64,000 bases of DNA from an uncultured Spirochaetota bacterium (GTDB lineage Bacteria > Spirochaetota > Spirochaetia > SZUA-6 > Fen-1364). Positions 15,349 through 46,849 of the stretch are shown here, in pieces. Numbering within the stretch: the first letter of the stretch is position 1; every line of letters starts with the position of its first letter. The notes under the pieces are model-generated. The model was given only the letters and a program-made list of their open reading frames with translations. It was not told where the DNA came from and did not search any database. The position numbers and the translations under genes were made by a program. Location of the stretch: NCBI GenBank assembly GCA_963745235.1, contig CAVUXE010000053.1:288001-352000 (forward strand), in the 5' to 3' direction.

Positions 15349-15449
15349 CCGCGGCAGTGTATCCCGGAGCTTTTCTTTTCGCAACCAGCGGCTCTGTTTG
15401 ACTCCGGTGGCCTATTCCAGTACAACTTATGAGAAGGGAGCGGAGGGAC

Positions 15450-17636: not shown

Positions 17637-17651
17637 AGGCGGGGCGCGTTT

Positions 17652-29772: not shown

Positions 29773-29926
29773 CAGTCCACTATACCTTCTGCCTCGGACA
29801 CGAAGTATCGGTAATACCACCTATTAGCGAATGCATGTTTTATCCTCTTTCGGCTGCCGGCTGGTCCGTATACCGTGGGACGGTGACGTACGATTCGCAC
29901 GCTTGGGCGCAAAGGCACGGAACAGA

Positions 29927-31520
29927 ATGACCCGCTCTCCCCGCATGATCAGAAACCCTGTGCTCCGGGGTTTCTGCCCGGATCCCTCCATCTTGCGAGT
30001 AGGGGACGACTATTACATTGCCACCTCAACGTTTGAATGGTTCCCCGGCGTCTGCGTGTATCATTCCCGCGACCTGGAGCACTGGCGCATCGTCTCCCGT
30101 CCGCTTGACCGGACGAGTCTCCTCGACATGAGAGGAGATCCGAACTCGGGAGGAGTCTGGGCTCCGTGCCTGAGCTGGGTGGAAGGCCGGTTCCACATCG
30201 TGTACACGGACATGAAGCGCTGGACGGGACAGATCAAAGACTGCCACAACTACCTCACCACGGCGCCGACAATCGAAGGTCCTTGGACCGACCCAGTCTA
30301 TCTGAACAGCTCCGGGTTCGACGCGTCTCTGTTCCACGACACAGATGGCCGTTCCTGGCTGACGAACGTGCTCTGGGACTACCGGCCTTCCCACAACCCC
30401 TTCGGCGGAATCGTGCTCCAGGAGTACTGCCGCAAAGACAGCCGCCTGGTCGGCGAACCGCAGCGCATCTTCTCGGGGACGCAGTTGGGGCTGGTGGAGG
30501 GGCCGCACCTCTACCGCCGGGGAAACTGGTACTACCTGGTGACGGCGGAAGGAGGGACCTTTGCAACGCACGCGGTGAGCGTTGCAAGATCTGCGACAAT
30601 TCAAGGCCCCTTCGAGGTCATGCCGGGAAATCCCCTCCTCACCTCCGCGCATGATCCGTCCCTGGACCAGCAGAGCGCCGGCCACGGGAGCCTGGTTGAG
30701 ACGCAGGACGGCGAATGGGTTCTTGCGCACCTGGTCCGCCCGGCCCCGCGCAAAAGGCAGGTCCATCCTCGGGCGGGAGACCGCGCTGCAGCTTCTTGAA
30801 TGGACCCCGGACGGCTGGCCCCGACTCACGCGCGGCGGCCGGGCCCCGGCGGACACCTTCCCTGCTCCCGACCTGCCGGCCTGCCCATGGGAACCGGAGA
30901 AATCCGTCTATCATTTCGATGAGCCGGTCCTGGGCAAGCCTTACCAGTCCCTGCGGATTCCGCTGGACAACTCCTTGATGAGCCTGACGGAACGGCCGGG
31001 CTTCCTGCGATTGAAAGGGGCGGAAAGCATCTTTTCCAACTTCCGGCAATCCCTGGTGGGTAGGCGGATTGCCTCCTTCCGGGTCCGGGCGGCGACATGC
31101 GTGGAGTTCCAGCCCCGGTCATTCCAGAACCTCGCGGGACTGGCGGCGTTCTACAGCACGGAAAGCTTCTACTATCTTTACATCACTCGGTCCGCTCACG
31201 CTTCCAAGTGCCTGGGCCTCATGCAGTGTGAGCGCGGTCTGCTTTCTTTTGCGGTGGAAAAGGAAGTCCCTGTCGAAAACTGGAATCGGGTTCACCTGAG
31301 CTTCGCGCTTGACCATGAGAGGCTTCAATTCTCTTTTTCCCCGGACGGCGCGGCATGGACAAAGATCGGCTGGGAGATGGACGCATCCATCCTCTCCGAC
31401 GAGCACGCCAATCCGTGCGGTTTCACTGGCGCTTTCGTGGCCTTGTGCTGCCAGGATCTGACAGGCCACGGCCTTCACGCGGACTTCGATTTCCTGGAGT
31501 ACGTAGAGCTCGACAGCTAG
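29927..31520 (+). CDS. GH43 beta-xylosidase/arabinofuranosidase; frameshift near 30734
   Basis: 'NPVLRGFCPDPS', 'ATSTFEWFPG', 'GVWAP', 'EGPH'; the C-terminal beta-sandwich ('GRETALQ...GFTGAFV') is in another frame. Confidence 0.9.
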
Positions 31521-33570: not shown

Positions 33571-33957
33571 ATGGCTTCACGAGCTGAGTACATTCCCGGC
33601 GTCTGCAACATCGGGGCGGCTGAAATCACCAGACGCATCAGGGGCGGGTGGACAGGGCTTGCCGTGACCGTCGTTCTCTGGGCGGTTTTCTTCGTCTTCC
33701 GTGTCCCCGGTCCCTGGAGATTGTTTCTTTTCCTTCCGGCAGCAACTGGCGCCGCCGGCTTTCTCCAGGCCGCCTTCCATTTCTGCGCCAATTTCGGGAT
33801 GCGCGGAGTATTCAACTTCGGCCCCGAGGCGGGAAAGACAGACACCGTAGAGCAGGCTGAGTTCAGGCGCAAGGACCGCAGGAAGGCGGGCCTGATCTCG
33901 CTTGCCTCGGCGCTGATCGGAATTGTGATAGCCGTTGCGGGGTTCCTGGTTCCCTAG
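33571..33957 (+). CDS. Small membrane protein
   Basis: GGAGG RBS; 'YIPGVCNIG..E..RR' N-terminus; three hydrophobic segments. Confidence 0.7.
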   Translation: MASRAEYIPGVCNIGAAEITRRIRGGWTGLAVTVVLWAVFFVFRVPGPWRLFLFLPAATGAAGFLQAAFHFCANFGMRGVFNFGPEAGKTDTVEQAEFRRKDRRKAGLISLASALIGIVIAVAGFLVP

Positions 33958-35261
33958 ATGTACCCCACGGCCTTCGCCTTTGCGGCGAGGTCCCCCCGGA
34001 AGTCGGGGTGCGCAACCGAGATCAGCTCTCGAACACGCTCGCGCACCGTGCGGCCGCGGAGACGCGCAATGCCGTGCTCGGTCACAACGATGTCGACGTT
34101 GGACCTGTGCAGCGTCACGGCGGTGCCTTCGGGGAGTGTAGGTACTATTGTGGATACTTTCCCCCCCTTCGCGGTGCTGTAGCACGCAATGATCGATTTG
34201 CCCGCCCCGTCCAGCCCTTCGACGGAACCGATTGCCGTATCAGATTGACCGCCTGTCCCCGAATACTGGGTCGTGCCAATGGATTCACTGGCAACCTGTC
34301 CGGTGAGGTCGACCATGAGGCACGTGTTGACGGACACCATCCTGGTGTTCTGCCGTATGACCGCGGGGTCATTGACCCATCTCCCGCGCTCGAACTGAAC
34401 GGCCACATTGTCATCCAGCCAGTCGTAGAGCTTGCGTGATCCCATCGCGAAGCAGCAGACGAACTTCCCCTTGAGGAGCCCCTTGCACTGGTTGGTGAGG
34501 ACTCCCATCTCGTACAGCTCCATCATGGAGTCCACCATCATCTCCGTGTGGACCCCCAGGTTGTGCTTTTCCCGCAGGGCAAGCGCGGCCGCGTTGGGGA
34601 TTCCGCCGATTCCCAGCTGAATGGTGCTGCCGTCCTCCACGAGCTCTGCGATGTGTCCGCCGATGGCGAGGTCCGTCTCCGAGGGAGACGGGGAGGGGAG
34701 GGACGGCACTTCCTGGTCGTGCTCCACAAAAAGGTCCGCGGCGGAGACGTGCACCTGCGTGTCCCCGAACGTGCGCGGAAGCCGCGGATTCACTTCCAGG
34801 ACGACGGTCCCGGCCGCTTCGATGACGTCCTTCTCATAGGTGATCCCGAGGGAAAGGGAGACGTACCCATGGCCGTCGGGCGGAGTGCAGGTGCCAAAGA
34901 AGACGTCCGGGCTGTGCGCGTGGATCCGGTCAAGGGCGGCGCGATGGAGCATGTTCGGCACGTACGTCACCGTCCCGGTTCCCGCCCGAAGCGCCTCCCG
35001 CGACCCGGGGGCATGGAACCAGGAGGCAAGCTCGAAGTGCCCGCGCATCTCGGGCCGCATGTAGAAATCATACGGCTTGAGCGTGAGCACGGAGAAGACC
35101 CGCACATCCTCCACCCTGTCCGCCACGATATGGAATCGGGACATGCAGCCCTGGGGCTCCGAGGCGCATTGCGCCACGATGACGTCGTTGCCGCTTTGAA
35201 TCCGGCAGACCGCCGTGTCGATGTCGACGAGCTTCTTTTTGTACTCGTCTTTCCACTGCAT
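33954..35261 (-). CDS. Acetyl-CoA hydrolase/transferase family (4-hydroxybutyrate CoA-transferase-like)
   Basis: 'IQLGIGGIP', 'GVHTEM', 'DLTGQ', 'SGTGGQ.D', 'VVTEHG', 'AHPDFR'. Confidence 0.9.
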   Translation of the reverse strand: MQWKDEYKKKLVDIDTAVCRIQSGNDVIVAQCASEPQGCMSRFHIVADRVEDVRVFSVLTLKPYDFYMRPEMRGHFELASWFHAPGSREALRAGTGTVTYVPNMLHRAALDRIHAHSPDVFFGTCTPPDGHGYVSLSLGITYEKDVIEAAGTVVLEVNPRLPRTFGDTQVHVSAADLFVEHDQEVPSLPSPSPSETDLAIGGHIAELVEDGSTIQLGIGGIPNAAALALREKHNLGVHTEMMVDSMMELYEMGVLTNQCKGLLKGKFVCCFAMGSRKLYDWLDDNVAVQFERGRWVNDPAVIRQNTRMVSVNTCLMVDLTGQVASESIGTTQYSGTGGQSDTAIGSVEGLDGAGKSIIACYSTAKGGKVSTIVPTLPEGTAVTLHRSNVDIVVTEHGIARLRGRTVRERVRELISVAHPDFRGDLAAKAKAVGYI

Positions 35262-35272
35262 ATTCCGCCTCC

Positions 35273-36283
35273 TTAGAGCATGATCAGGTTTGCCCCGACC
35301 GCCAGGCCCGCGCCGGAAGCGACAAGGACCAGCGCGTCTCCCTTCTTCACCGTGCCTTCGCCCCGGGCCGTGTGCAGGGCCATGGGGACGCATGCGGACC
35401 CCGTGTAACCGTAACGGTCCATGACGCAGGTCGTCTTGCGGACGGGAAGCCCGAGGATCCCCATGACCTCGTGGATGACCGACCTGTTGATCTGCGTGAA
35501 AAGGAGGTGGTCCACCTGCTCCAGGGGCCATCCGGCCTTGTCCAGGAGCCGGTGCACGAGGGGCGGCCAGAGCTTCACGTTGCGGTCTCCCGGGAGCTTC
35601 TGCAGCAGCTCCAGCCCCCAGGTCCCGGCCTCTAGGATCTCCCGCGTGATCGGCGTGCGGGTGCCGCCGGCATAGACGCCGACGTAGTTCCATTGCGTAC
35701 CGTCGGCCTTGAGAACTCCTTCCACGTATCCACGGGAGCCATCGCGATCCTCCCGGCGGAGCAGGACCGCGCCGGCCCCGTCAGCGAAGATGGTCCAGCC
35801 GAACTCGTCGCCCGGCCGCAGGTAGGCCGGCATGTTGTAGACGCCGACCACGAGGGCGTAGCGAATCGAAGGATCAGTCATCATCATCCGTGCCACGGCG
35901 TCCAGCGCCGTCACGAAGCTCGCGCAGGAGGCGCCGACGTCGAAGGCCCCGGATTCCATTTCCCCGCCTTGCAGTCTTCCCTGGAGAAGGATCGAGGTGG
36001 CCGGAGAGATATGCTCAGGGGTGTCCGTGGCGACGACAAAGAGGTGCACCTCGCTTGCCGCCACCCCCGCGTCACGGAGGGCCGCCCGGGCAGCTTTCTC
36101 CGCAAAGTCCGCCGTGGATTCGCGGATGCCGCGCAGCCTCGCGATGTGCCTGGCCCGGATGCCGATTTTCGATTCCAGCCGCCCCGCGTCGAAGGAGATG
36201 CCCGTCAGGCGCGCGAGCTCCTGGTTGTCGATCGGATCACCCGGCACATAGAGCCCGGTCCCGACGATTCGCGCCGTGGCCAT
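35273..36283 (-). CDS. KAS III (FabH-fold) protein A, non-canonical active site
   Basis: GASCASF (Cys), FADGAGA, 'FTQIN' and 'YGYTGSA' at the His/Asn positions. Confidence 0.85.
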   Translation of the reverse strand: MATARIVGTGLYVPGDPIDNQELARLTGISFDAGRLESKIGIRARHIARLRGIRESTADFAEKAARAALRDAGVAASEVHLFVVATDTPEHISPATSILLQGRLQGGEMESGAFDVGASCASFVTALDAVARMMMTDPSIRYALVVGVYNMPAYLRPGDEFGWTIFADGAGAVLLRREDRDGSRGYVEGVLKADGTQWNYVGVYAGGTRTPITREILEAGTWGLELLQKLPGDRNVKLWPPLVHRLLDKAGWPLEQVDHLLFTQINRSVIHEVMGILGLPVRKTTCVMDRYGYTGSACVPMALHTARGEGTVKKGDALVLVASGAGLAVGANLIML

Positions 36284-36294
36284 ACGCCCTCCTT

Positions 36295-37428
36295 TCAATC
36301 CAGCCAGTCGGAGAACCCCCGCGAAAGGTAGCCCCCGATGGCTTCCACCGCCGCACGCGCGTTCAACGGAGTCATTTCGAAGGCGGCTTCGATGCCGGAA
36401 TAATGGGCTATGCCGAGGAGGAACTCGATTGCCGTCCCCTGGTCGGCATCACCGTTGCCTTCGGGGTTCTTTCGGTACCCGTCCACGAAATGGCCGTAGT
36501 ATTCCCGCACGGCCGCGGGGAGCACGAACTCCGCCTCGCGCACGATGGGATAGCAGTCCCTGTCCAGGGTGAGGTACACGAGCCAGAGCCACAGGCCCCG
36601 CAGCTCGCGCTCCAGCCGGTTGAGGGGAGAGCCATCGCTCGCCGCTATATTGCGGGAGATGAAGGAGCGCACGTCGTGGCTCAGCATGCGGATGAGCTCC
36701 GCGAAGTACGTCTCCTTGGACTCGAAGTGGCTGTAGAAGGCGCCGACGGACAGCTCGGCCAGGTCGGTGATCTCGTGGATATTCGTCTCGAAGAAGCCCT
36801 TTTCGCCAAAGAGCCGCTTGCCCGAACGGAGGAGCCGCTCGCGGGCATTCGCCTCCAGCGCGACGGGGTGGGGAGTGGCGGTCCCCCCGAAAACCCTGGT
36901 GGCGTCGAAGGTCATTCCGCGGAAAAGGCCCCTGCAGAGGATCTCGGGGAGGTCCTCGAACCGAATGACCACGCCGTGAAGGGCGCTTCGAATGGCGCAG
37001 AAGCGCAGTCCACCGAGAGCAAACAGATACTCGGCCAGCCCGATCTCCCGTCCGAGGGCGAAGCTCAGGCTCTGCTGGTAGATCGCCATCAGCCTTCGTT
37101 CGTACTCGAAGAAGCGGTATTGCCCTTCACGAAACACGGCGACGAGCCGCGAGTGGTCGCAAGAGAAGCTGACGACCGCCCGGGCAAGAGACTGGATGCG
37201 ATCTGTCTTGCACGAGCCTCCCGGCGCGGACACGGCGTTTCGGATCATTTGCAGCACCTGCTCGAGGATCCTTCGAAAGAGCGCCTCCTTGCCGTCGAAA
37301 TACCGGTAGAAAACGCCATTGGAAAGCCCGGCTCCCCGACAGATGGCGGCGACCGACACGGTTCCGTACCACTTATGCGAGAACAGCTCAACTGCTGACT
37401 CGATCAAGCGATCTTCGGTGCCCGGCAT
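36295..37428 (-). CDS. Tandem double TetR-family regulator
   Basis: Two HTH units ('ICRGAGLSNGVFYRYFDGKEAL' and 'ITDLAELSVGAFYSHFESKE') in 377 aa. Confidence 0.85.
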   Translation of the reverse strand: MPGTEDRLIESAVELFSHKWYGTVSVAAICRGAGLSNGVFYRYFDGKEALFRRILEQVLQMIRNAVSAPGGSCKTDRIQSLARAVVSFSCDHSRLVAVFREGQYRFFEYERRLMAIYQQSLSFALGREIGLAEYLFALGGLRFCAIRSALHGVVIRFEDLPEILCRGLFRGMTFDATRVFGGTATPHPVALEANARERLLRSGKRLFGEKGFFETNIHEITDLAELSVGAFYSHFESKETYFAELIRMLSHDVRSFISRNIAASDGSPLNRLERELRGLWLWLVYLTLDRDCYPIVREAEFVLPAAVREYYGHFVDGYRKNPEGNGDADQGTAIEFLLGIAHYSGIEAAFEMTPLNARAAVEAIGGYLSRGFSDWLD

Positions 37429-37443
37429 CAGACCGTCCGATCC

Positions 37444-37586
37444 GTGAGAGCCGATTCACTCACAACCGTCATCCTATCCTATCTATTGCGCAAAAACAAT
37501 AGAAAAGTTGCCATTGTTAGATCAAATAGAGCTTGACAACTCGACATGTGTGCAATAAGAATGGTGAGAGGCGATTCGGTTGTCAC
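37444..37586. promoter_or_regulatory. Divergent promoter region with two putative TetR operators and an inverted repeat
   Basis: GTGAGAG(C/G)CGATTC at 37444 and 37564; TCTATTG-N8-CAATAGA at 37482-37503; TTGACA at 37533. Confidence 0.55.
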
Positions 37587-37607
37587 TGGAGAAAAGGGGC
37601 ACCGCAG

Positions 37608-38615
37608 ATGCATGTCGGCATCATTGGGCACGGCACCTGGCTTCCATCCACTTTCATGAGCGCGGAGGATATCTCTGCGGCAACCGGCATTCCACAAGAT
37701 GTCATCGCCTTGAAGTTCGGCGTCAGGCGCAAGCCGGTTTCCTCTCCCGGTGAGACCACCGCCGCCCTGGGTCTCCATGCCGCGCGACGCGCCCTCGCTG
37801 ACGCGGGTATTTCCGGCTCAGAGGTGGACCTGGTGATCTGGTGCGGCGCACAGCACAAGGACTATCCGTGCTGGCTTGCCGGCCTTTATGTAGCAGACCA
37901 GATTGGCGCGAAAAACGCGTGGAGCTTCGACATGGAGGCCATGTGCGGTTCCATGATGGCCGCGCTGGATATCGCAAAATCCCTCATCATTGCGCGGGGG
38001 GACCTGGAAACGGTGCTTCTCGTTTCCGGGTACAGGAACAATGATCTCATCGACCTGAAAGAGCCTGCCACCCGGTTCATGCTCGACATCGGATCCGGCG
38101 CCTCGGCCCTGGTCCTGAGAAAGAATGCCGGACGAAACGCGGTCCTCGCTTCGGCATTTCGCGGGGACGGATCCTTCTCCGAGATGTGCGTCGTACCGAC
38201 CCTGGGCTCGAGGGCATGGCCTCCGTCCCCGGGGGATGAATCGCGCGCCCATTTCATCGTGCCTGACGAGGAAGCGTTCAAGAAGAAGCTGAACGATCTG
38301 ACTCTTCCCAACTTCTATGCGGTCATCCGGGAGTCTCTCCAGCGCTCGGGGGCCCGGGCAATAGACTATCTTGCGATCCTTCATTTCAAACGCAGCGCTC
38401 ATGGCGCGGTGCTCAAGGAGCTCGGCCTCGGGCCGGCCAACACAACCTACCTGGAAGACTACGGCCACCTGGGGCAGAACGACCAGGTCCTCTCCCTGGA
38501 GCTGGGGCTGGCCGCAGGCAAGGTTCGTGACGGCTCCACGGTGGTCTTTGTGGGCGCGGGCCTGGGATTCGTCTGGGCAGCGACAGTGATCACGTGGGGA
38601 CCCTTCAAGGAATAG
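37608..38615 (+). CDS. KAS III (FabH-fold) protein B, Cys-His-His type
   Basis: 'MEAMCGS' (Cys), 'ILHFKRS' (His), 'YGHLGQND', 'GAGLGFVW'. Confidence 0.85.
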   Translation: MHVGIIGHGTWLPSTFMSAEDISAATGIPQDVIALKFGVRRKPVSSPGETTAALGLHAARRALADAGISGSEVDLVIWCGAQHKDYPCWLAGLYVADQIGAKNAWSFDMEAMCGSMMAALDIAKSLIIARGDLETVLLVSGYRNNDLIDLKEPATRFMLDIGSGASALVLRKNAGRNAVLASAFRGDGSFSEMCVVPTLGSRAWPPSPGDESRAHFIVPDEEAFKKKLNDLTLPNFYAVIRESLQRSGARAIDYLAILHFKRSAHGAVLKELGLGPANTTYLEDYGHLGQNDQVLSLELGLAAGKVRDGSTVVFVGAGLGFVWAATVITWGPFKE

Positions 38616-38623
38616 GAGACGTC

Positions 38624-39361
38624 ATGCGTCTGGATGGAAAAGTGTGCATGGTCACCGGCGGCGCCCGGGGGATCGGCAAAGGGGTGGTGGAGACATTCGT
38701 CAGGGAAGGGGCTCGGCGCGTCTGGGCCCTGGACGTGAACGAGAGCGAGCTCGCCGCGCTTGAAAAAGGCGCCCTTTCCGTCACGGGCGTCGCCGTGGAT
38801 GTGACGAGCTCCGCCGCGGTGAACGCCGTTGTGGAGCGCGTCAGGACCGAGTCAGGCGGAATAGACGTCCTTGTGAACAACGCCGGCATAACGCGGGATG
38901 CAATGATCCACAAGATGAGCGACGCTGATTGGGATGCCGTGGTAAACGTCAACTTAAAAGGCGTGTTCTTCGTGACGCGCGCGGTGGCGCCGCTCATGAT
39001 GGAGGCGGGCCGGGGATCCATTGTCAGCATCAGCTCCATCGTGGGCCTTGACGGCAATATCGGGCAGACCAACTACGCCGCGACAAAAGGCGGCGTTGTC
39101 GCAATGACAAAGGGATGGGCCAGGGAGTTCGTTCGAAAGGGAGCAAAGATACGCGTCAACGCGGTGTCTCCCGGCTACACCCGCACTCCCATGATTGCCT
39201 CTGTGCCTGAGAAGGTCCTGGAGCCCATCATCGCCAGGACACCGCTGGGAAGACTCGCGGAGATCCGCGACATCGCGCATGCGGTCCTTTTTCTTGCCAG
39301 CGATGAGTCTGAGTTCATCACGGGCCAGGTACTCCGCGTGGACGGCGGCCTGGTCCTGTAG
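38624..39361 (+). CDS. SDR 3-oxoacyl reductase (FabG/PhaB-like)
   Basis: TGGARGIG, NNAGITRD, GNIGQTNYAATK. Confidence 0.88.
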   Translation: MRLDGKVCMVTGGARGIGKGVVETFVREGARRVWALDVNESELAALEKGALSVTGVAVDVTSSAAVNAVVERVRTESGGIDVLVNNAGITRDAMIHKMSDADWDAVVNVNLKGVFFVTRAVAPLMMEAGRGSIVSISSIVGLDGNIGQTNYAATKGGVVAMTKGWAREFVRKGAKIRVNAVSPGYTRTPMIASVPEKVLEPIIARTPLGRLAEIRDIAHAVLFLASDESEFITGQVLRVDGGLVL

Positions 39362-39399
39362 AGCCGGGGACGCCCAGGCGCCCCAAAAGGAGGAGCGAT

Positions 39400-40605
39400 A
39401 TGAGGAAGGCTTTCGTGGCTGTCGCATGCTTTGCGCTGCTTGCAGTCGCAGCGTTCGGGCAGGGCGTCATCAAGCTGGGTGCCAACTGGCCCCTTGCTGA
39501 CGTGAGCGGTCTGGAGTGCTCCAAGGCAGCCCAGCTTGCGGTAGATGAGATCAACAAGGCCGGGGGCGTCCTGGGAAAGCAGCTCCAGCTGGTGGTGGTG
39601 GATGACGAGGGGAAGGGAGACAAGGGCGTGGCCGCCATAGAGAAGCTCGTCACCGTGGACAAGGTGGACGTCCTGCTGGGCGGGATTGCTTCCGGCGTCG
39701 CCGTGGCCCAGGTCCCGACACTGAAGAAGTACCAGATGGTCACTGTCGCCACAGGGGCGGCTGCAAGCGCAAGCGTGGAAAAAGCCCTTGGACCGAGCCC
39801 CGGCTCCGACTGGTATTTCCATCTCCATCCGTGGGACTACGACCAGGGCCAGAGCTACTATGAGGGCTGGGACGCCATCCAGAAGAAGTACCCGAACGTG
39901 GTCATCAGGAGGATCTTTCTTGCCTACGAGGAGGGAGCTTTCGGAAAGTCGTCCTTCGATGCTTCCAAGGCCCTGTTCGGCTCCCGCTACACCTTTGACG
40001 GCGCTTCGTTCAAGAGCGCCCTCCAGGGCGGCTCGGACTATTCCTCCGTGCTGGAGGCGGCCAAGGATTTCAATCCGGACCTGTTCCTCTGGGCCGGTTA
40101 CGCGCAGGATGCGCTGCCCCTCCTGGAGCAGTCCAAGGCAATGAAGTTCTCCCCGCCCATCTACCTCGGGGCTCCTCCCGCATGGCCCGTTGACATGGGG
40201 AAGTCTCCCCTTGCGGAAGACATCATGCTGTACGGCATGTGGGCGCCATCGATCAATGACATCAGCCCGGCGAGCAGGAAGTTCTACGACGCCTACGTTG
40301 CCGCAACCGGCTCCGCGCCGACAAGCTACTTCGCCGCCCTCTCCTACAGCGCTGTCTACATCATCGCTGACGCGGTGAAGCGCGCCGGTGGAACAGACGC
40401 GGCCAGGCTCATTCCCGCGCTGGAAAAAACGAGGTATGTGTCTCCCCTCGGTCAGACAATCACTTTCACGCCCTCGAACATCATCAAGCACCAGGGCATC
40501 AAGAACCAGAAGATCCTCCAATGGCAGGACGGCCGCCAGGAAGTGATCTGGCCGTTCGAAGTCCAGTCCCGGGCCCTCGTGTATCCCCTTCCCCCGTGGA
40601 AGTAG
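39400..40605 (+). CDS. Liv/HAAT-family ABC substrate-binding protein
   Basis: Signal peptide; 'LAVDEINKAGGVLGKQL', 'EKLVTVDKV'. Confidence 0.88.
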   Translation: MRKAFVAVACFALLAVAAFGQGVIKLGANWPLADVSGLECSKAAQLAVDEINKAGGVLGKQLQLVVVDDEGKGDKGVAAIEKLVTVDKVDVLLGGIASGVAVAQVPTLKKYQMVTVATGAAASASVEKALGPSPGSDWYFHLHPWDYDQGQSYYEGWDAIQKKYPNVVIRRIFLAYEEGAFGKSSFDASKALFGSRYTFDGASFKSALQGGSDYSSVLEAAKDFNPDLFLWAGYAQDALPLLEQSKAMKFSPPIYLGAPPAWPVDMGKSPLAEDIMLYGMWAPSINDISPASRKFYDAYVAATGSAPTSYFAALSYSAVYIIADAVKRAGGTDAARLIPALEKTRYVSPLGQTITFTPSNIIKHQGIKNQKILQWQDGRQEVIWPFEVQSRALVYPLPPWK

Positions 40606-40606
40606 C

Positions 40607-41563
40607 ATGAGGATCGTTGTGACCCGGCCGCGCGTCGGGCCGGGTCGGATGTGGCAGGTCGTCCTCTGGACCGCCCTTGCGGCGGCGGGGACGGCCGCCG
40701 TCCTTCTGTGGAAGCCGACAGCCCTCGTGTACGGCGTTCAGCGCGCCGGCCTCTACGCGGCGGTTGCCATTCCCATGGCCCTCGTCCTCGGCATCGTCCA
40801 CATCGTCAACCTCGCCCACGGAGAGCTCATGATGGTGGCCGCCTACCTTGCCTACTTTGCCGCCCGTCTCCTCGGCCTGGACCCCTTCGTGGCCCTTGTT
40901 CCCGTGGCTCTCGTCATGGCTGTCCTGGGCCTCCTGCTGTACCAGGTTACCATCAGGCATTCCCTCAAAGCGCCGGAGCTCAACCAGCTGATCCTCACGT
41001 TCGGGCTCGGGATTGCCCTGAGCCAGATGGTGAACCTCCTGTTCACCTCGCAGTCGTGGAAGCTCTCCCTGGACTATGTGTCGGCTTCCGCGACCGTCGG
41101 AAACATCAGCTTCGGAGTGTTCGACTTCGTCTATGCAGGCGCCGCCATCGCGATCGCGCTGGGGCTGCGGCTTTTCCTGACCCGCACGCGTCTCGGGAAA
41201 GCCGCCCTCGCGGTGGGCCAGAATCCGCGTGGGGCGGCAATCGTCGGGATCGATGTCGGCAGGACCTATGCATTCGTTTTTGCCCTGGCCGTAGGCTTGA
41301 TCGGCGCCGTGGGCTCGATCTTCCTCGCGAAGCAGGCGATTTTCCCCCTGGTGGGCGGCCCGTACACCATGAAGTCCTTCTGCCTCGTGGCCATGGCGGG
41401 GGTGGGCAACATCGTCGGCATCCTTTACTGCAGCCTGGCCCTGGGGCTGTCGGAAAGCATCATCAACAGCATCAGGGGCTACGCGGGATGGTCGAACGTG
41501 GTTTTCTTCGCGATCATCATCGTGACCATCCTGGTCCGCTCCTTCCGGGAGAGGAAAGCATGA
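40607..41563 (+). CDS. LivH-like permease
   Basis: 'IVNLAHGE', 'TRLGKA...QN..GA..VGI'. Confidence 0.88.
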   Translation: MRIVVTRPRVGPGRMWQVVLWTALAAAGTAAVLLWKPTALVYGVQRAGLYAAVAIPMALVLGIVHIVNLAHGELMMVAAYLAYFAARLLGLDPFVALVPVALVMAVLGLLLYQVTIRHSLKAPELNQLILTFGLGIALSQMVNLLFTSQSWKLSLDYVSASATVGNISFGVFDFVYAGAAIAIALGLRLFLTRTRLGKAALAVGQNPRGAAIVGIDVGRTYAFVFALAVGLIGAVGSIFLAKQAIFPLVGGPYTMKSFCLVAMAGVGNIVGILYCSLALGLSESIINSIRGYAGWSNVVFFAIIIVTILVRSFRERKA

Positions 41564-42513
41564 CCCTTGCCGTCAGGCGGCTTCTCCCCCTCGCCGTTAT
41601 TGCAGTCGCTGTCCTCTTTCCTTTCGTCTCCGGCCCCTACCCCCTTGCCGTCGCGCAGAGCATCCTCATTTACATGGCCCTGGCGGTGAGCTGGGACATG
41701 CTGCTGAGGTCGGGCCAGATCTCCTTCGGCATCGCCGGCTTTTTCGGCATTGGCGCGTATGCCTCCGCCATAACCACGCTCGCCGTCCGCGCATCGCCCG
41801 TCATCTCCATCCTGCTTGCCGGGGCATGCTCCGCCGGAGTCGCGTTTGTCCTCGGCTTCGTCATCCTACGACTCAGGAAGGTGTATTTCGCCATCACGAC
41901 GCTGGCGCTCGCGGAGATCTTTCGGGTGATCGTCCACAACTGGGGAGACTTCACCGGCGGTCCGGAAGGCCTTGTCCTTCCGTCCCTGATCTTCAAGGGA
42001 GATTCGCGGGCCCTCTTCTGGATAGCCCTCGGCGGCGTGCTCCTTGCCTGCGGCTTGTCGGCGTGGTTTCAGCGCTCCCGGTTGAGGTTCGCCCTGACGG
42101 CAATCCGCAACAACGAAGTGAGCGCGCGCTCAAGCGGGATCGACATATTCAAGTACCTGATGATTGCCTTCGTGACGTCCTCTTTCATCCAGGGGATTGT
42201 CGGCGGCATCCAGGTCCAGCTCTATGGCTACGCTTCGCCGGATTCCGTGTTCGACGCCAACTACACCCTGCTCCCCCTGGCGATGGCGTTGCTGGGGGGG
42301 ATCTACAGCACGCCCGGTCCGGTGCTTGGCGCTGTCCTTCTGGGCGTTGCCGCGGAGTACCTCAAGCTGAAGATCCCGTACGGGCACCTCGTCGTGTACG
42401 GGATCATCATCGTCCTGGTCATTCTTCTTCTGCCGGATGGGCTCTACGGCCAGTACCGCAGAAGCGTCAGGGACAGGGCCCGCACGGCGCGCGGCGGAAC
42501 GGCCCATGCCTGA
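41560..42513 (+). CDS. LivM-like permease
   Basis: 'GQISFG..GFFGIGAY', 'YFAITTLA', 'TGGPEG', 'AIRNNE'. Confidence 0.88.
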   Translation: MTLAVRRLLPLAVIAVAVLFPFVSGPYPLAVAQSILIYMALAVSWDMLLRSGQISFGIAGFFGIGAYASAITTLAVRASPVISILLAGACSAGVAFVLGFVILRLRKVYFAITTLALAEIFRVIVHNWGDFTGGPEGLVLPSLIFKGDSRALFWIALGGVLLACGLSAWFQRSRLRFALTAIRNNEVSARSSGIDIFKYLMIAFVTSSFIQGIVGGIQVQLYGYASPDSVFDANYTLLPLAMALLGGIYSTPGPVLGAVLLGVAAEYLKLKIPYGHLVVYGIIIVLVILLLPDGLYGQYRRSVRDRARTARGGTAHA

Positions 42514-43225
42514 CCTCCAGACCTTCGGGCTGACCCGGCATTTCGGGGGACTTGTCGCGGTCAACAACGTTTCCTTCACCCTCGATTGCGGGGAGATACT
42601 GGGGGTCATCGGGCCAAACGGCGCGGGGAAGACCACGTTCATCAACCTCGTGTCAGGCGTCTATGCGCCGTCGAGCGGGCGCATCCACTTCCAAGGGCGG
42701 GATATCACGGGCCTGCCGGCCCACAAGCGCGCGCAGATGGGCATTTCCCGAACATTTCAGATCATTCACCCCCTGGAGAACCTCGACGTGCTGGAAAACG
42801 TGATGCTGGGGTTCATCTTCAGCCGGCGCATGGGACTGAGAGAGGCGCGACGATCCGCGGAGACGTTGTGCGGCTCTCTCGGACTGGGAGACCTGTCCCG
42901 GGATGTCTCCCAGATCACGATGCTGGAAACCAAGAAGATGGAGATTGCCCATGCCCTCGCAAGCGGGCCTTCCATCCTGTTCCTGGACGAGGTCATGGCC
43001 GGGCTCAACGTCGACGAAACCAGGGAGATCGTCCAGCTGGTCCAGAGGGTGACGAGAGAGCACAACATCGGAGTGGGTGTCGTGGAGCACGTCATGAGCG
43101 TGATCCGGGACCTGACTCACCGCGTGATCGTCCTGGAGGCTGGAGAGATCATTGCCGCCGGACCCTACGAGGAGGTTGCGAAGAATCCGAGGGTCATCGC
43201 TGCCTACCTGGGAGGGGCCGCATAG
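42506..43225 (+). CDS. LivG-like ABC ATPase
   Basis: 'FGGLVAV', GPNGAGKT, 'LDEVMAGL', 'VIAAYLG'. Confidence 0.9.
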   Translation: MPDLQTFGLTRHFGGLVAVNNVSFTLDCGEILGVIGPNGAGKTTFINLVSGVYAPSSGRIHFQGRDITGLPAHKRAQMGISRTFQIIHPLENLDVLENVMLGFIFSRRMGLREARRSAETLCGSLGLGDLSRDVSQITMLETKKMEIAHALASGPSILFLDEVMAGLNVDETREIVQLVQRVTREHNIGVGVVEHVMSVIRDLTHRVIVLEAGEIIAAGPYEEVAKNPRVIAAYLGGAA

Positions 43226-44149
43226 ATGCTCCAGATCAGGGATTTGGAGGTCAGCTATGGGAGGATCCCCGTCCTGCGGGGCGTGAGCCTGACAGTCGGC
43301 AACGAATCCGTCGGGTTGTTCGGACCGAACGGGGCAGGGAAAACCACGCTGATCAACGCGATCATGGGCTTTCTCCGTCCGCGGGCCGGCACAGCCACGG
43401 TGGATGGTCAGGACCTCACGGCGCTGCGCACGCACCAGATTGCCAGGGCAGGGATCGCTCTTGTGCCGCAGGAGCGCGAGCTTTTCCCCGGCATGTCCGT
43501 TGGAGACAACCTGGAGCTCGGCGCTGTCTACATCCCTCGCGCGCGGGCCGTCATGGAGAAGCAGAGGGAAACCGTGCTCGGGCTGTTTCCCGTTCTGCGG
43601 GAGCGCTACAGGCAGCTTGCAGGGACCCTGTCCGGAGGGCAGCAGCGAATGGTCGCCATTGGCCGGGCGCTCATGGCGAATCCGAGGCTTCTCATCCTGG
43701 ACGAGCCGTCTCTTGGTCTCCAGCCGTCAATCGTGTCAGAGGTCTTCGAGAAGCTCGCGCAGCTCAAGGCAACGGTCTCCATCCTCGTCACTGAGCAGAA
43801 CGTCAGGGAAAGCCTGCGGGCCGTGGACCGCGGGTATGTGCTGGAGAACGGGTCAATAGCCCTCCAGGACAGCGCGGAGGGATTGTCGAACAACCCGCAC
43901 GTGATCGCGTCATACCTGGGGATCTGGCAATGCCGAGCAACGGGACCACGAAGGGCGTCGTCGAAGCCGGGGGAGCGCGCATCTCGTACGGGGGGCGCGG
44001 CACGGGTGTTCCGGTTGTGCTCATACACGGAAACACCGGCTCGAGCAGGTGGTTCCAGCGGGTCATGGACGTGCCTGGCTGCAGGACGATTGCCCTCGAC
44101 ATGCCGAACTTCGGACACTCGGGTCCACTGCCTCACGAGCCCTCCATAG
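43226..44149 (+). CDS. LivF-like ABC ATPase (homology ends near 43925; no stop until 44149)
   Basis: GPNGAGKT, LSGGQQRM, DEPSLGL, 'VIASYLGI'. Confidence 0.85.
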   Translation: MLQIRDLEVSYGRIPVLRGVSLTVGNESVGLFGPNGAGKTTLINAIMGFLRPRAGTATVDGQDLTALRTHQIARAGIALVPQERELFPGMSVGDNLELGAVYIPRARAVMEKQRETVLGLFPVLRERYRQLAGTLSGGQQRMVAIGRALMANPRLLILDEPSLGLQPSIVSEVFEKLAQLKATVSILVTEQNVRESLRAVDRGYVLENGSIALQDSAEGLSNNPHVIASYLGIWQCRATGPRRASSKPGERASRTGGAARVFRLCSYTETPARAGGSSGSWTCLAAGRLPSTCRTSDTRVHCLTSPP

Positions 44150-44730
44150 ACCGCTACGCAGACGCCGTGACGGCTTTCCTCAGCGCGCTGGGGATAGACA
44201 GGCCGGTCCTGGTGGGGCATTCCCTCGGAGGGGCGGTGACCATCTCCCTTGCCGTTCGCGGTCCGACGCTTTTCCGCGGGCTCATGCTGGTGGATTCCGC
44301 CGCGCCCTCCGGCCTGGCGACGCCTGAAGCTCGCTATCCCTTCATCGAATCGATGCGGACCAACCGCGAGATTCTGGCAGCGGCGCTTTCCGCGGTGGCG
44401 CCGACCCTGAAAGACCAGGGCTTCTTCGCCGCCCTCGTGGATGACGCAACGCTGATGGCTGCCCCCGCCTGGATCGGGAACGCCCGCGCCCTGAGCCTCT
44501 TCGACTATCGGGGCAGGTGCGGCGCCTTCACCGCTCCCGTGCTGGTGGTGTGGGGGCGAAAGGATGTGATCGTCACGGAAGCCATGGCCCGGGAAACGGC
44601 CCAGGCCTTCCCGAACGCCCGGCTCCTGGTACTGGAAGGGGTGGGCCATTCCGTGGTGGCGGAGGATCCTCCCTGCTTCGTGAGCCTCCTGTCGGATTTC
44701 GTATCCGGATTGGGAAAGGATGACGCATGA
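43930..44730 (+). CDS. Alpha/beta-fold hydrolase (esterase)
   Basis: 'HGNTGSS' oxyanion region, GHSLGG nucleophile elbow, 'WGRKD', 'GVGH'. Confidence 0.88.
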   Translation: MPSNGTTKGVVEAGGARISYGGRGTGVPVVLIHGNTGSSRWFQRVMDVPGCRTIALDMPNFGHSGPLPHEPSIDRYADAVTAFLSALGIDRPVLVGHSLGGAVTISLAVRGPTLFRGLMLVDSAAPSGLATPEARYPFIESMRTNREILAAALSAVAPTLKDQGFFAALVDDATLMAAPAWIGNARALSLFDYRGRCGAFTAPVLVVWGRKDVIVTEAMARETAQAFPNARLLVLEGVGHSVVAEDPPCFVSLLSDFVSGLGKDDA

Positions 44731-45990
44731 GCCGTGTCAGCATTATCGGAGCGTACAACACGAAGTTCGGCAGCTTCGTGAGGCGAAACAAGGAGACGGG
44801 AGAAGTGGCTGACCTGGCTTCCCTCTACGACCTGATGATGGAGGCCGGGCGGGGCGCGCTGAAAGATGCGGGGGTCTCAGGCAAGGACGTGGACGGTGTG
44901 TGGGTCGGCAGCTGCGCGCCAGGGCTGTTCGCCAACCAGGAGCACGTTGCCGCTATCGCGCCCGAGATCGATCCCGAGGGGCTTCGTTTCAAGCCAATGA
45001 CGCGCTGTGAAGACGCCTGCGCGTCGGGCTCGGTGGCCCTCTACAACGCGGTGTACGCCGTGGAATCAGGCCGGGCGCGGATTGCCCTGGTGCTCGGCGT
45101 GGAAAAGATGAACCTCCTCGATACCCGGGGCGTCACGCACGCTCTGGCTACCTGCTCATACTGGCCCGAGGAAGGCGCCCGGGCAGTCACGTTCCCTTGC
45201 CTCTTCGCGGAGTACGCAAAGGGCTATGCCGCCCGCCACGGGCTTTCAGGGGATCTTCTCAGGCGCATGCTCGCCTCCGTCACGGCCCTCGCGTATCGCA
45301 ACGGACTGGACAACCCCCTGGCCCATTTCGGGAGGGGAGGCCCGTCGGAGAAGATGCAGCTGCTGACCGCGCAGTCCGTGCTGGACCTTCCCGAGGAGAG
45401 GAACCCCGTGATTGCCGAGCCTCTCCGGCTGCACGATTGCTCCCTCATATCCGACGGCGCTGCCGCCGTTGTGATCATGGAGAGCCGGGCAGCCGCGCGC
45501 CGGGGACGCGCGGCAGTGGAGATCTCCGGCATAGGGCACGTCAACGAGCGCATTGCGCTCTCCGCGCGGGAAGGCATGCACGAGCTGACCGCGGGCAAAG
45601 AGGCGGCGCGCCGCGCGTTCGCGGAGGCCGGCGTCGGCATCTCGGACGTGCAGATTGCCGAGGTCCATGACTGCTTCACGATCAACCAGCTCCTGTGCAC
45701 CGAGGCGCTCGGCCTGTCAGCGGACGGCCGCGCGGGTTACGACTACATGGAGGGCAGGTTCGGCAGAGAGGACGCGGAATGCTGCGTCAATCTCTCCGGC
45801 GGCCTGAAGGCGAAAGGGCATCCGGTGGGAGCCACCGGCGTCTCCATGCACGCCCTTGTCTACCGGCAGCTCATCGGGACAGCCTGCCGGGGCCGCTCCC
45901 GGCCGGGGGCAGCCGGAGATCGGCGTGACCTTCAATGTCGGCGGATCAGGCGTCACCAACTGCGTCTCAGTCCTGCGAAGACGAAGGTAG
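44727..45990 (+). CDS. SCP2-type thiolase (acetyl-CoA acyltransferase); frameshift near 45878
   Basis: 'EDACASGS' Cys, HDCF, GHPVGATG; the true C-terminus 'FNVGGSGVTNCVSVL' is in a shifted frame ending at TAG 45990. Confidence 0.88.
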
Positions 45991-46009
45991 GGGCTCTCAA
46001 GGCAGGGGC

Positions 46010-46849
46010 TCAGTAGTACTCGATTGACCTGTACTCGACTTCAACGGCCGTGTACGGTCCCTTGCCCTGGAGCTCCTTGGTCACTTTTCTGATCCAATTC
46101 CCCGCCGCGTCCAGTGAGTACTCATACTGGCGTTTCCACACGAGAGCTCCGTCCGCGGAGTATTTCTCTGCCTCTGTTTCGTTGCCCTGGGAGTCGTAGG
46201 TCGATCTGCGCTCGAGAACATTCGTTGCCCCGTATTGCTCGGAAACCCTCAGCCTGCCCTCACTGTCATACGTGTAGGCGCTGTCCTCCGAGATTGCAGC
46301 GTTGGAGTCGTACGCTATCCACTCCCGGGGGTGCCCGTTGCTGTCATAACTGTAGACCCATTTGCCGAGTGACGAGCCATCCGAGGCGAAGTGCTCTATT
46401 TCGATGTTCCTGCCCCGCGCATCGTATCCGTACACGGATTGTTCCTGGAGGGAACCGTCAGGGCCATACGTCGCGGACGTTGATTTCACGCCGGCAGCCG
46501 AATAGGTGTACACCAGCTTCAGGGACGTCTGCCCGTCCGCAAGCCTGCACTCGGTGGAGGTCCTTTTTCCCGGGCTGTCGTAGGCGAAATGGAAGGTCCA
46601 CAGGGGCAATCCGCTCGAGCTGAAATGCAGCTCTTCGGTCTTTTCTCCCGCAGGGGTGTACCAGGCCGTCTGGACCGGCCGCCTCCTGGCTTCCGACGCT
46701 GCACCGGCTTTCTGCAGCACCTCCGCTCTCTCCACGGCCACGCTTTTCACCTTGCCCTGCAAGCCGTCTTCCTCCCAGCTGCTTGGCTGGGGGAAGACGA
46801 GGGCGGCCGCTGCGAGGCCAATGACAGTCACGAAGATGGTGGTCTTCAT
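46010..46849 (-). CDS. Secreted YD-repeat protein
   Basis: Signal peptide; 'GLQGKVKSV' start; seven ~26-aa YDxxG repeats; 'DAAGNWIRK...YRSIEYY' end. Confidence 0.75.
   Translation of the reverse strand: MKTTIFVTVIGLAAAALVFPQPSSWEEDGLQGKVKSVAVERAEVLQKAGAASEARRRPVQTAWYTPAGEKTEELHFSSSGLPLWTFHFAYDSPGKRTSTECRLADGQTSLKLVYTYSAAGVKSTSATYGPDGSLQEQSVYGYDARGRNIEIEHFASDGSSLGKWVYSYDSNGHPREWIAYDSNAAISEDSAYTYDSEGRLRVSEQYGATNVLERRSTYDSQGNETEAEKYSADGALVWKRQYEYSLDAAGNWIRKVTKELQGKGPYTAVEVEYRSIEYY

Follow-up and report, generated by a model that had tools for sequence, protein, structure and literature searches.

A 64,000-nt stretch of DNA from an uncultured Spirochaetota bacterium (GenBank assembly GCA_963745235.1, contig CAVUXE010000053.1, positions 288,001 to 352,000 of the forward strand), hereafter referred to as the window, carries at 33954–46016 a locus of 12 closely packed genes arranged in two divergent operons. 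In order of transcription, the minus-strand operon encodes a tandem TetR-family regulator, a protein related to 3-oxoacyl-acyl carrier protein (ACP) synthase III (KAS III-A), and a coenzyme A (CoA)-transferase. The plus-strand operon encodes a second protein of this type (KAS III-B), a short-chain dehydrogenase/reductase (SDR), a five-part Liv-type importer, a serine α/β hydrolase, and an SCP2-type thiolase. The features are given below; coordinates here and throughout are positions in the window unless a contig or locus label is given.

33954..35261, minus strand: CoA-transferase of 435 aa, 4-hydroxybutyrate/butyryl-CoA:acetate family (AcetylCoA_hyd_C, 192.8 bits; AcetylCoA_hydro, 35.1 bits)
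35273..36283, minus strand: KAS III-A, 336 aa (Pfam ACP_syn_III and ACP_syn_III_C)
36295..37428, minus strand: tandem two-domain TetR-family regulator, 377 aa (two TetR_N stretches)
37445..37457, plus strand: candidate operator copy 1 within the TetR operon leader, TGAGAGCCGATTC (core invariant in 10/10)
37533..37561, plus strand: predicted promoter-like boxes of the plus operon, TTGACA, 17 nt, TAAGAA (CTTGACA invariant in 10/10 aligned spacers)
37565..37577, plus strand: candidate operator copy 2, TGAGAGGCGATTC, just past the −10 box of the plus operon (invariant in 10/10)
37608..38615, plus strand: KAS III-B, 335 aa, of the NCBIfam PRK06840 family (NF005308, named '3-oxoacyl-ACP synthase')
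38594 (GTG) or 38624 (ATG) to 39361, plus strand: FabG/PhaB-like SDR of the NAD type (adh_short_C2, 215.5 bits)
39400..40605, plus strand: periplasmic binding protein with a signal peptide (Peripla_BP_6, 169.3 bits)
40607..41563, plus strand: LivH-like permease (BPD_transp_2, 96.6 bits)
41560..42513, plus strand: LivM-like permease (BPD_transp_2, 131.6 bits)
about 42437..43225, plus strand: LivG-like ATPase (ABC_tran and BCA_ABC_TP_C)
43226..about 43933, plus strand: LivF-like ATPase (ABC_tran and BCA_ABC_TP_C)
43930..44730, plus strand: cytoplasmic serine α/β hydrolase, 266 aa (Abhydrolase_1, 103.9 bits; GHSLG box, no signal peptide)
44727..46016, plus strand: SCP2/archaeal-type thiolase, 429 aa (Thiolase_N and Thiolase_C_1)

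The intergenic gaps were 0–40 nt, except for a 180-nt regulatory spacer between the operons, and thus leave no space for an ACP, FabD, FabZ, or ligase gene inside the locus. A preliminary description of this DNA had claimed this gene set for the two divergent operons and the absence of ACP, FabD, FabZ, and acyl-CoA ligase; every gene that it named was found, and the absence was borne out. Its start of the locus (33954) also stood, but its end (45990) did not, since the thiolase gene runs 26 nt further, and its gene order on the minus strand has to be replaced by the order TetR, KAS III-A, CoA-transferase. The genome has its own type II fatty-acid synthesis (FAS II) genes on contig C37, encoding a PlsX-like protein, FabF, FabG, FabD, and a FabH with HQAN and NTSAAS motifs, and acpP was found on contig C48 (103.7 bits against a cut-off of 70.45). 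Homologues of the KAS III proteins were present in archaeal operons, and to our knowledge archaea lack ACP and FAS II. At the level of gene content, the separation of the locus from fatty-acid synthesis is supported.

Both KAS III proteins were compared with FabH, whose catalytic triad consists of Cys112, His244, and Asn274 in the numbering of the Escherichia coli enzyme. KAS III-A remained under every NCBIfam cut-off (best score, 185.9 bits against 249) and scored 154.5 bits on the fabH model TIGR00747, for which the cut-off is 292.1. In alignments with the FabH proteins 4RYB, 2EBD, and 4DFE, it kept the Cys, and the His and Asn were replaced with Thr (FTQIN) and Tyr (YGYTGSAC), respectively. 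The Cys/Thr/Tyr pattern was observed in all 14 sampled members of the KAS III-A subfamily, and His and Asn were observed in the three FabH controls (3/3). The family with this pattern takes in proteins of Thermofilum adornatum, T. pendens, and Infirmifilum. Because the His/Asn pair is lost, decarboxylative condensation by KAS III-A is disfavoured.

KAS III-B carries both domains, ACP_syn_III and ACP_syn_III_C, and scored 415.3 bits on NF005308, over the cut-off of 315, and 111.3 bits on TIGR00747, again under 292.1. The Cys was kept in this protein too; its His lies one position past that of His244, and another His occupies the position of Asn274, so that the Cys-His-Asn triad was found in neither protein. 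The corresponding motifs, LHFKRS and YGHLGQND in the window and LH(F/M)KRS and YGHxGQxD in the family, were retained in 7/7 diverse members down to 41% identity. In a second set of members from five lineages, including haloarchaea and Bacillales, the nucleophile, HxKRS, and GHxxxxD were found in 7/7, with Ser in the Cys column of two Bacillales members and an invariant Asp five residues after GH. No member of PRK06840 with a tested function turned up in the searches made. The conservation of the substitutions in both proteins suggests that they are working enzymes with a chemistry other than that of FabH; judged by these residues, neither KAS III protein is FabH.

AlphaFold2 models of KAS III-A and KAS III-B had mean predicted local distance difference test scores (pLDDT) of 96.3 and 94.9, respectively. 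The best Foldseek matches of the former were FabH and BioZ, with template modelling (TM) scores of 0.86–0.90, and the top matches of the latter were FabH proteins with TM scores of about 0.86, with OleA chains also among the matches. By sequence, the best E-values against FabH were 1.8e-37 for KAS III-A and 1.7e-23 for KAS III-B, and OleA chains matched KAS III-A more weakly than FabH (about 1e-17 against about 1e-37). In the fold searches, both models matched FabH-like enzymes only, and the hypotheses could not be told apart on this basis. The identity of KAS III-B as an HMG-CoA (3-hydroxy-3-methylglutaryl-CoA) synthase was likewise rejected, since the match was confined to the N-terminal third.

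These results bear on an explanation in which KAS III-A and KAS III-B would be priming enzymes of fatty-acid synthesis, an imported short acid being put on CoA and condensed with housekeeping malonyl-ACP. The FAS II genes and acpP elsewhere in the genome would serve such a role, and a Cys with two His residues in KAS III-B and nearest folds of the FabH type are compatible with it. However, both residues for decarboxylation are gone from KAS III-A, each of the two KAS types is also encoded in importer operons of archaea, the island is missing from 31 of the 41 genomes searched, and priming would leave the NAD-type SDR, the thiolase, the hydrolases, and MaoC (found in related loci) without a role. 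We consider this explanation very improbable.

The distribution of the locus was examined in two samples. KAS III-A was searched for in 41 related genomes, among them that of the window itself (G000), and close copies (E 1e-89 or better, 75–100% identical) were found in 10 of them, the copies in G017 and G021 being in two pieces. Thirty of the other genomes had only a FabH-like protein with 24–35% identity, and one had no match. All 12 genes were present in identical order in the nine other genomes with close copies (complete in seven and cut by a contig end in two), which indicates that the arrangement is more than chance, and the genes flanking the locus in the window did not recur in them. 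This conservation of the neighbourhood, for which the preliminary description had called, indicates that the locus is an accessory island and one unit. For KAS III-B, 247 relatives were scanned with one genome per species, and the best 80 were retained as loci; by record title, 53 belong to Spirochaetota, 2 to a 'bacterium', and 25 to Holophagaceae/Acidobacteria, including Geothrix fermentans DSM 14018. KAS III-B was 66–89% identical across the 80 loci, and such identity across phyla indicates transfer and strong constraint. Among the spirochaete loci, many contigs break off within the cluster.

The open reading frame (ORF) listed for the CoA-transferase (579 aa) was over-extended: similarity begins at residue 145–147, leaving 435 aa. 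The protein belongs to the acetyl-CoA hydrolase/transferase family, having both domains, and its closest solved relative was the 4-hydroxybutyrate CoA-transferase 3GK7 (E 8.7e-100), whose Glu238, which we take to be the catalytic Glu, aligned with the Glu of HTEM. On the butyryl-CoA:acetate equivalog TIGR03948, it scored 240.7 bits against a cut-off of 674.8. The gene was present in 66/80 loci, with 71–91% identity over 64 near-full-length matches.

The SDR was under the cut-offs of the FabG, acetoacetyl-CoA reductase, and 3-hydroxybutyrate dehydrogenase models. It has an Asp at the end of β2 (ALD), as do the SDRs of the archaeal and Holophagaceae modules, and the housekeeping FabG of the same genome has Ser-Arg. 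An Asp at this position is the usual mark of a preference for NAD(H) in SDRs. Its closest solved chains were 4NBU and 4NBT (E 9e-71 and 1e-68, respectively), NADH-dependent FabG enzymes that reportedly, in work by Javidpour in 2014, used acetoacetyl-CoA as a substrate. A table in PMC5264612 places 4NBU and 4NBT among 'NAD-bound dehydrogenases', and the references of that article tie both to an 'NADH-dependent FabG' paper.

The thiolase scored 332.9 bits on PRK07516, for which the cut-off is 412. Its closest solved relative was 6ESQ_A, an archaeal acetoacetyl-CoA thiolase (E 2.4e-56), to which the stretches CASGS, HDCF, and GHP(V)GATG aligned. The presence of both domains, of the HDCF and GHP motifs, and of a nucleophilic Cys places it among SCP2-type/archaeal thiolases. 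The CASGS, HDCF, and GHP stretches are presumably motifs with catalytic roles.

With a binding protein, two permeases, and two ATPases, the importer belongs to the HAAT (Liv-type) family. Its binding protein fell far under the cut-offs for LivJ/K (59.3 bits against 477) and UrtA (58.5 against 492.75), and its best solved relative had an E-value of only 4e-18; by this score, it is not a member of the branched-chain LivJ/K-HMGF group. In public records, the genes concerned are named either as a '3-oxoacyl-ACP synthase' or as a 'branched-chain amino acid ABC transporter', in line with the mislabelling that had been predicted for this locus. The LivF frame is open to 44149, with about 70 low-complexity codons past the usual ...SYLGI end that overlap the hydrolase gene, and the similarity of LivF in related genomes ends at residue 233–236.

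The best NCBIfam model for the hydrolase of the window was the short-chain-length polyhydroxyalkanoate (scl-PHA) depolymerase NF050089, on which it scored 103.6 bits over residues 15–148, against a cut-off of 300. Its solved relatives were the esterase 5EGN (E 2.6e-20) and, over the N-terminal half, the poly-3-hydroxybutyrate (PHB) depolymerase 8YNV (E 6e-18). Profile scans of the window revealed no recognised PHB depolymerase or oligomer hydrolase, and for the Esterase_PHB family just a 21-bit partial match was found, on the contig of the window but 74 kb upstream of it. The loci of spirochaetes, Holophagaceae, archaea, and the Firmicute-like type, where the contigs reached far enough, encoded between one and three GxSxG hydrolases, most of which lack a signal peptide. 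Since these serine hydrolases are cytoplasmic, the imported compound would retain its ester bond. Apart from the hydrolase of the window and that of the locus L133 described below, the hydrolases scored on the scl-PHA depolymerase model reached 42–109 bits. Those of Geothrix and the archaea scored highest on 3-oxoadipate enol-lactonase models (133–138 bits, under the cut-off of 255.85).

The tandem TetR protein contains two helix-turn-helix regions, the first at residues 8–54 (TetR_N, Pfam) and the second near residues 192–278 (NCBIfam), and was encoded in 70/80 related loci. Two copies of TGAGAGnnGATTC lie in the same orientation in the 180-nt spacer (at 37445 and 37565), with no other exact copy in the window, and the core of this motif was invariant in 10/10 intergenic regions of the genus and family. 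The CTTGACA box and, 17 nt further downstream, the −10-like box were conserved as well. The motif was located within 450 nt upstream of the KAS III-B gene in 71/80 loci, with two copies in 40. Elsewhere, five copies were found in 1.23 Mb, three of which were directly upstream of the gene for an AMP-forming ligase (AMP-ligase) in transferase-less loci. The motif was missing in L048, L050, L069, L076, and L077, in which the transferase gene directly precedes the KAS III-B gene with no TetR gene between them; in L066 and L108, despite a TetR gene; and in L073 and L093, whose contigs start at the KAS III-B gene. A conserved asymmetric site in the promoter region of the regulator's own operon accompanies the two helix-turn-helix regions, and a non-palindromic site of this kind would fit one polypeptide whose two DNA-binding domains differ from each other. 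The operator shared by both operons, together with the 12-gene synteny, agrees with the earlier proposal of a single functional unit.

A genome-wide scan for the operator gave two further exact copies, inside a LacI-type ORF on contig C96 and in a spacer by a transposase-like ORF on contig C10. Since about three exact copies are expected in the genome, these are at about chance level and no extra member of the regulon was identified. The latter copy (G000:C10:33362, ATGAGAGTTGATTCA) is in a low-GC spacer between the transposase-like ORF and a 258-aa lipoprotein-like ORF, and may be due to chance.

The composition of the locus varied among lineages. In the 55 loci of the spirochaete group, KAS III-A was present in 52, the SDR in 34, and the thiolase in 29, together with the importer and one or two hydrolases. 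In Holophagaceae loci, the transferase, TetR, and KAS III-B were accompanied by a porin-like gene, a Liv set of their own, a PcaD-like hydrolase, and in many cases a MaoC hydratase; these loci ended either with a KAS III-A-type gene and a type-B carboxylesterase (the carboxylesterase being carried by Geothrix) or with a third, membrane-anchored hydrolase followed by the SCP2-type thiolase and the SDR. In the locus of Geothrix fermentans (L070, 98–949) and 12 more Holophagaceae loci, a 283-aa protein without a family match precedes the binding-protein gene; it ends in ...NLNYWF like outer-membrane barrels and may be a dedicated porin of the module in these diderms. Among the 80 loci, 14 lacked the transferase, and 4 of these had an AMP-ligase instead.

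The two KAS types were also found in archaea. Metagenome contigs of the Thermofilum type encoded a KAS III-A-type protein 87–100% identical to that of T. adornatum, and those of sufficient length (L127 and L129) contained co-directional genes for an SDR, an archaeal helix-turn-helix regulator, an AMP-ligase, two serine hydrolases, LivG, LivF, LivH, LivM, the KAS III-A-type protein, and a binding protein. Ten haloarchaeal records were matched, with loci on megaplasmids (Halobaculum limi and Salarchaeum sp. JOR-1) that encoded MaoC, a hydrolase, an AMP-ligase, a regulator, a binding protein, two ATPases, and two permeases, the last permease gene being overlapped by the KAS III-B-type gene. In both archaeal types, the KAS gene follows the last permease gene of a Liv operon with the hydrolase(s) and the AMP-ligase. 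The presence of the KAS III-A type in Thermofilum-type archaea and of the KAS III-B type in haloarchaea, in similar importer operons, corroborates the independence from ACP that had been proposed for the locus.

The loci of Bacillus sp. N5-665 and Brevibacillus laterosporus encoded TetR, an AMP-ligase (PRK06839), MaoC, KAS III-B, and an NHL-repeat protein, followed by a Liv set or an SDR. KAS III-B of Bacillus sp. N5-665 scored 555.4 bits on PRK06840, and the Bacillales SDR was 51% identical to that of the window. The NHL-repeat proteins (L212, 10990–12855; L213, 11010–12911), of 621–633 aa, scored 366 and 355 bits on the ScyF model (cut-off, 350). Three Bacillales proteins, namely the ligase, KAS III-B, and the SDR, match the consecutive models PRK06839, PRK06840, and PRK06841, which suggests that adjacent genes in a single Bacillus reference genome were the source of these models, and the name of PRK06839, 'o-succinylbenzoate--CoA ligase', is probably a misnomer in this context. 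The low-GC, Firmicute-like locus L133 had the order binding protein, hydrolase, KAS III-B (46%), CoA-transferase (57%), hydrolase, hydrolase, KAS III-A (45%), with percent identity in parentheses. Its 298-aa hydrolase overlapping the start of KAS III-A scored 357 bits over 1–288 of 288 positions of the Bacillus-type scl-PHA depolymerase equivalog (cut-off, 300), and L133 was the only related locus in the sample with this equivalog. The parts that recurred, though not all of them everywhere, were the importer, the hydrolase(s), an enzyme for CoA activation (either an AMP-ligase or the transferase), at least one of the two KAS types, and an SDR, MaoC, or both. MaoC was found in the Holophagaceae, haloarchaeal, and Bacillales variants.

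KAS III-A and KAS III-B always occurred together within the genus and family of the window (10/10 genomes). An obligate KAS III-A/KAS III-B heterodimer was nevertheless rejected as a requirement, since each type was found without the other: KAS III-A in Thermofilum-type loci and several soil loci, and KAS III-B in the loci of haloarchaea and Bacillales as well as in 19 of 25 sampled Holophagaceae loci, some of which are on short contigs. That either type can stand alone makes an obligate pair unlikely.

The same variants were weighed against a biosynthetic cluster for an ACP-independent polyketide, β-lactone, or signalling lipid that merely adjoins an unrelated amino-acid importer. The OleABCD and lipstatin gene sets resemble the combination of two KAS III proteins, an SDR, an α/β hydrolase, and an activating enzyme, and autoregulator-receptor models were among the NCBIfam matches of the TetR protein, all of them under the cut-off. 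A cluster of this kind is highly improbable, however, because the importer genes are inside the operon and co-conserved across phyla and domains, the archaeal KAS gene comes immediately after the last permease gene, the operator spans both operons, the SDR has the NAD-type motif, and OleA matches are far weaker than those of FabH.

Taken together, the NAD-type enzyme, the importer, the ATP-free activation, and the repressor suggest catabolism. The catabolic reading advanced in the preliminary description gained support from the importer in the operon, the NAD-type Asp of the SDR, and the exchange of the CoA-transferase for an AMP-ligase in the variants; as a catabolic, ACP-independent, and ester-centred reading, it is well supported by the comparative evidence. 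As for the import of esters such as 3-hydroxybutyrate oligomers, which had also been proposed, esters are favoured by the recurrent hydrolases, and the oligomers as a substrate are only suggestive, given the 103.6 bits of the window's own hydrolase against 300. The transfer of acyl groups to CoA by the KAS III pair, also part of that description, may take place and is compatible with the conserved residues by which the two proteins depart from FabH. The acetoacetyl-CoA-type thiolase, the 4-hydroxybutyrate/butyryl-CoA:acetate transferase family, and the recurrent MaoC appear to point to C4 β-hydroxy chemistry, and the depolymerase equivalog of L133 would provide a link to PHB that is thin but real. 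A search of the genome of the window (85.7% complete) for a PHA synthase gave none, a result that would fit scavenging rather than storage turnover.

Our preferred explanation, to which we assign a probability of roughly 45%, is that the locus is a repressor-controlled catabolic unit for imported small hydroxy-acid esters, most likely dimers or oligomers of (R)-3-hydroxybutyrate derived from the PHB of other microbes. The Liv-type ATP-binding cassette (ABC) system would bring the ester in, and the serine hydrolase would open the ester bond with water in the cytoplasm. In the KAS III pair, the Cys would attack the oxo-ester and CoA would resolve the acyl-enzyme, by which part of the energy of the ester bond would be kept as a thioester and a fermenter would be spared one CoA transfer per ester bond. 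A precedent is the thiolysis of PHB esters to 3-hydroxybutyryl-CoA by PhaZ1, reported in a passage of PMC3430594. The CoA-transferase would activate the free acid at the expense of acetyl-CoA, a step assigned to the AMP-ligase in other variants, after which the NAD-dependent SDR would convert 3-hydroxyacyl-CoA to 3-oxoacyl-CoA and the SCP2-type thiolase would convert 3-oxoacyl-CoA to acetyl-CoA. The tandem TetR protein would repress both operons at the two asymmetric sites until a pathway intermediate appears. We infer the substrate, the directions of the steps, the KAS reaction, and the effector of the repressor.

Several observations weigh against this explanation. The link to PHB at these loci depends on a single metagenome contig, L133; among the window and the 80 closest loci, no hydrolase reached the PHA-depolymerase cut-off (scores tested, 103.6, 70.5, 42–49, 75, and 86 bits), and the hydrolases fit enol-lactonase models about equally well. 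The nearest characterised relative of the CoA-transferase acts on 4-hydroxybutyrate, not on 3-hydroxybutyrate, and the slot of the α/β hydrolase in other variants is occupied in the Bacillales by the NHL-repeat protein. The Cys, His, and His of KAS III-B resemble the triad of KAS I/II, so that a decarboxylating condensation is conceivable, and the nearest Foldseek matches of both models were FabH, not the ester-forming relatives of KAS III. Finally, the route from the monomer (activation, SDR, and thiolase) requires no KAS III. Since that route needs none, yet a KAS III-like gene marks every variant, KAS III would have to serve a step specific to the imported form.

Some of these points would also suit the degradation of a different ester or lactone, such as lactones of 4-hydroxy acids, esters of medium-chain 3-hydroxyalkanoates, or plant or humus lactones, by a hydrolase, CoA activation, and shortening by the SDR and thiolase. 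Along with the similarity of the CoA-transferase to 4-hydroxybutyrate CoA-transferases and of the Geothrix and archaeal hydrolases to enol-lactonases, the type-B carboxylesterase of Geothrix, the soil and peat labels on 7 runs from 5 studies, and the xylan-degrading genes around the window are in line with such substrates. We regard this explanation as unlikely, since no 4-hydroxybutyryl-CoA dehydratase or acyl-CoA dehydrogenase was found in any mapped variant, the SDR, MaoC, and acetoacetyl-CoA-type thiolase indicate β-hydroxy, C4-like chemistry, and one variant encodes a PHA-depolymerase equivalog.

The step that KAS III might serve was considered in two ways. In the first, the pathway is the same as in our preferred explanation, but the FabH-like enzymes are substitutes for thiolase that catalyse non-decarboxylative, retro-Claisen cleavage of 3-oxoacyl-CoA. 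OleA illustrates that this fold is capable of non-decarboxylative Claisen chemistry. The loss of His/Asn removes decarboxylation and leaves an acyl-Cys, and the Thermofilum-type, haloarchaeal, and Bacillales operons have a KAS III-like gene without a thiolase gene. A conserved thiolase is, however, also encoded in the window and most complete spirochaete loci (29/55, many contigs being short), Holophagaceae operons group KAS III-B with the hydrolase, thiolase, and SDR, and the Ser nucleophile of the two Bacillales KAS III-B proteins suits acyl transfer better than C–C cleavage, so that this role seems quite unlikely.

In the second, both rewired FabH-fold families would form a new catabolic class that opens oxo-esters with CoA and converts imported hydroxyacyl esters directly to acyl-CoA. 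We put this forward as a doubtful yet specific proposal. If it is true, fermenting bacteria and archaea would obtain about one acetyl-CoA more from each 3-hydroxybutyrate dimer than by hydrolysis followed by CoA transfer. If our preferred explanation holds, thousands of genes named '3-oxoacyl-ACP synthase' or 'branched-chain amino acid transporter' would belong to a widespread, unstudied route, by which anaerobes of peat, soil, lakes, and digesters and archaea of hot springs and brines would live on polyester fragments of other organisms. The thiolase superfamily would gain a catabolic role and perhaps a new reaction, with a bearing on the anaerobic fate of PHB bioplastics. The single-chain TetR protein with its asymmetric 13-bp site could also offer a compact sensor. 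Cultured carriers of the locus type are Geothrix fermentans DSM 14018, Halobaculum species, Bacillus sp. N5-665, and Brevibacillus laterosporus. In the literature check for which the preliminary description had called, searches of a full-text collection found no publication characterising the cluster or these KAS III subfamilies, and a look-up in the Atlas gave just generic '3-oxoacyl-ACP synthase' clusters from several phyla.

DNA nearly identical to that of the window was found in metagenomes of soil and peat, where 7 runs from 5 studies contained half or more of the sampled words; runs with a small share of the sampled words were left out. One peat RNA library contained three contigs of 151–165 nt that were ≥99% alike, at 39245–39395 (the last part of the SDR gene with the spacer that precedes the binding-protein gene) and 40161–40482 (within the binding-protein gene), with the rest of the locus uncovered; these may derive from DNA.

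Xylan-degrading genes surround the window. A GH43 β-xylosidase at 29831–31520 is spread over two overlapping ORFs in different frames (GH43, 29831–30799; GH43_C2, 30582–31520), which suggests a frameshift or an assembly error. Six consecutive large ORFs of 160–735 aa at 13089–21195, with a coding-like third-position GC content (GC3) of 0.72–0.86, had no Pfam match at E 1e-5 and are located between Fn3/CHB_HEX_C_1 repeat genes and an adenylate cyclase gene. At 4319–6850, an 843-aa fusion of CheB methylesterase, CheR methyltransferase, and PAS_10 is encoded, adjoined by a HisKA_3 kinase.

The individual enzymes were finally compared with known systems. The CoA-transferase is of the same family as AbfT (3GK7) and butyryl-CoA:acetate CoA-transferase, with a full-length alignment and the position of Glu238 kept, but it is below the TIGR03948 equivalog cut-off and has different gene partners in the locus of the window. 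The thiolase is most similar to that of the archaeal acetoacetyl-CoA thiolase/HMG-CoA synthase/DUF35 complex (6ESQ, E 2.4e-56), and the N-terminal third of KAS III-B matches the HMG-CoA synthase chain of this complex (E 1.5e-10), with no full-length match. Unlike in that system, the locus has no space for a DUF35 gene, and the thiolase is an inconstant part of the module.

With FabH/KAS III (EC 2.3.1.180; 1HN9 of E. coli and 4RYB of Neisseria meningitidis), the KAS III proteins share the fold, the length, the two Pfam domains, and the acyl-carrying Cys. They differ in that KAS III-A has Thr and Tyr at the positions of His244 and Asn274, respectively, and KAS III-B has a shifted His, a His at the Asn position, and the conserved KRS and Asp. 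Furthermore, the KAS III proteins of the locus are without an ACP or fatty-acid synthesis partner and are encoded in importer operons, whereas the canonical FabH is encoded separately in the genome. CerJ (3S3L) and DpsC (4XS7 and 5WGC), which were among the solved relatives of KAS III-B (E about 1e-10 to 5e-11), are thiolase-fold acyltransferases with Cys/Ser-His-Asp triads. Enzymes of this type move an acyl group between CoA and oxygen and make no C–C bond, and the KAS III-B family retains a nucleophile, a His, and an invariant Asp. CerJ and DpsC are, however, biosynthetic and ester-forming, whereas a transfer from ester to CoA in catabolism is proposed here; their relationship to KAS III-B is distant, and FabH is closer to it by sequence and fold. 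The classical mobilisation of PHB and catabolism of 3-hydroxybutyrate share with the proposed route the hydrolase(s), CoA activation, an NAD-dependent 3-hydroxyacyl step, and a thiolase of the acetoacetyl-CoA type, whereas the uptake by a Liv-type ABC system and the two FabH-like hallmark enzymes of the locus are foreign to the textbook pathway.

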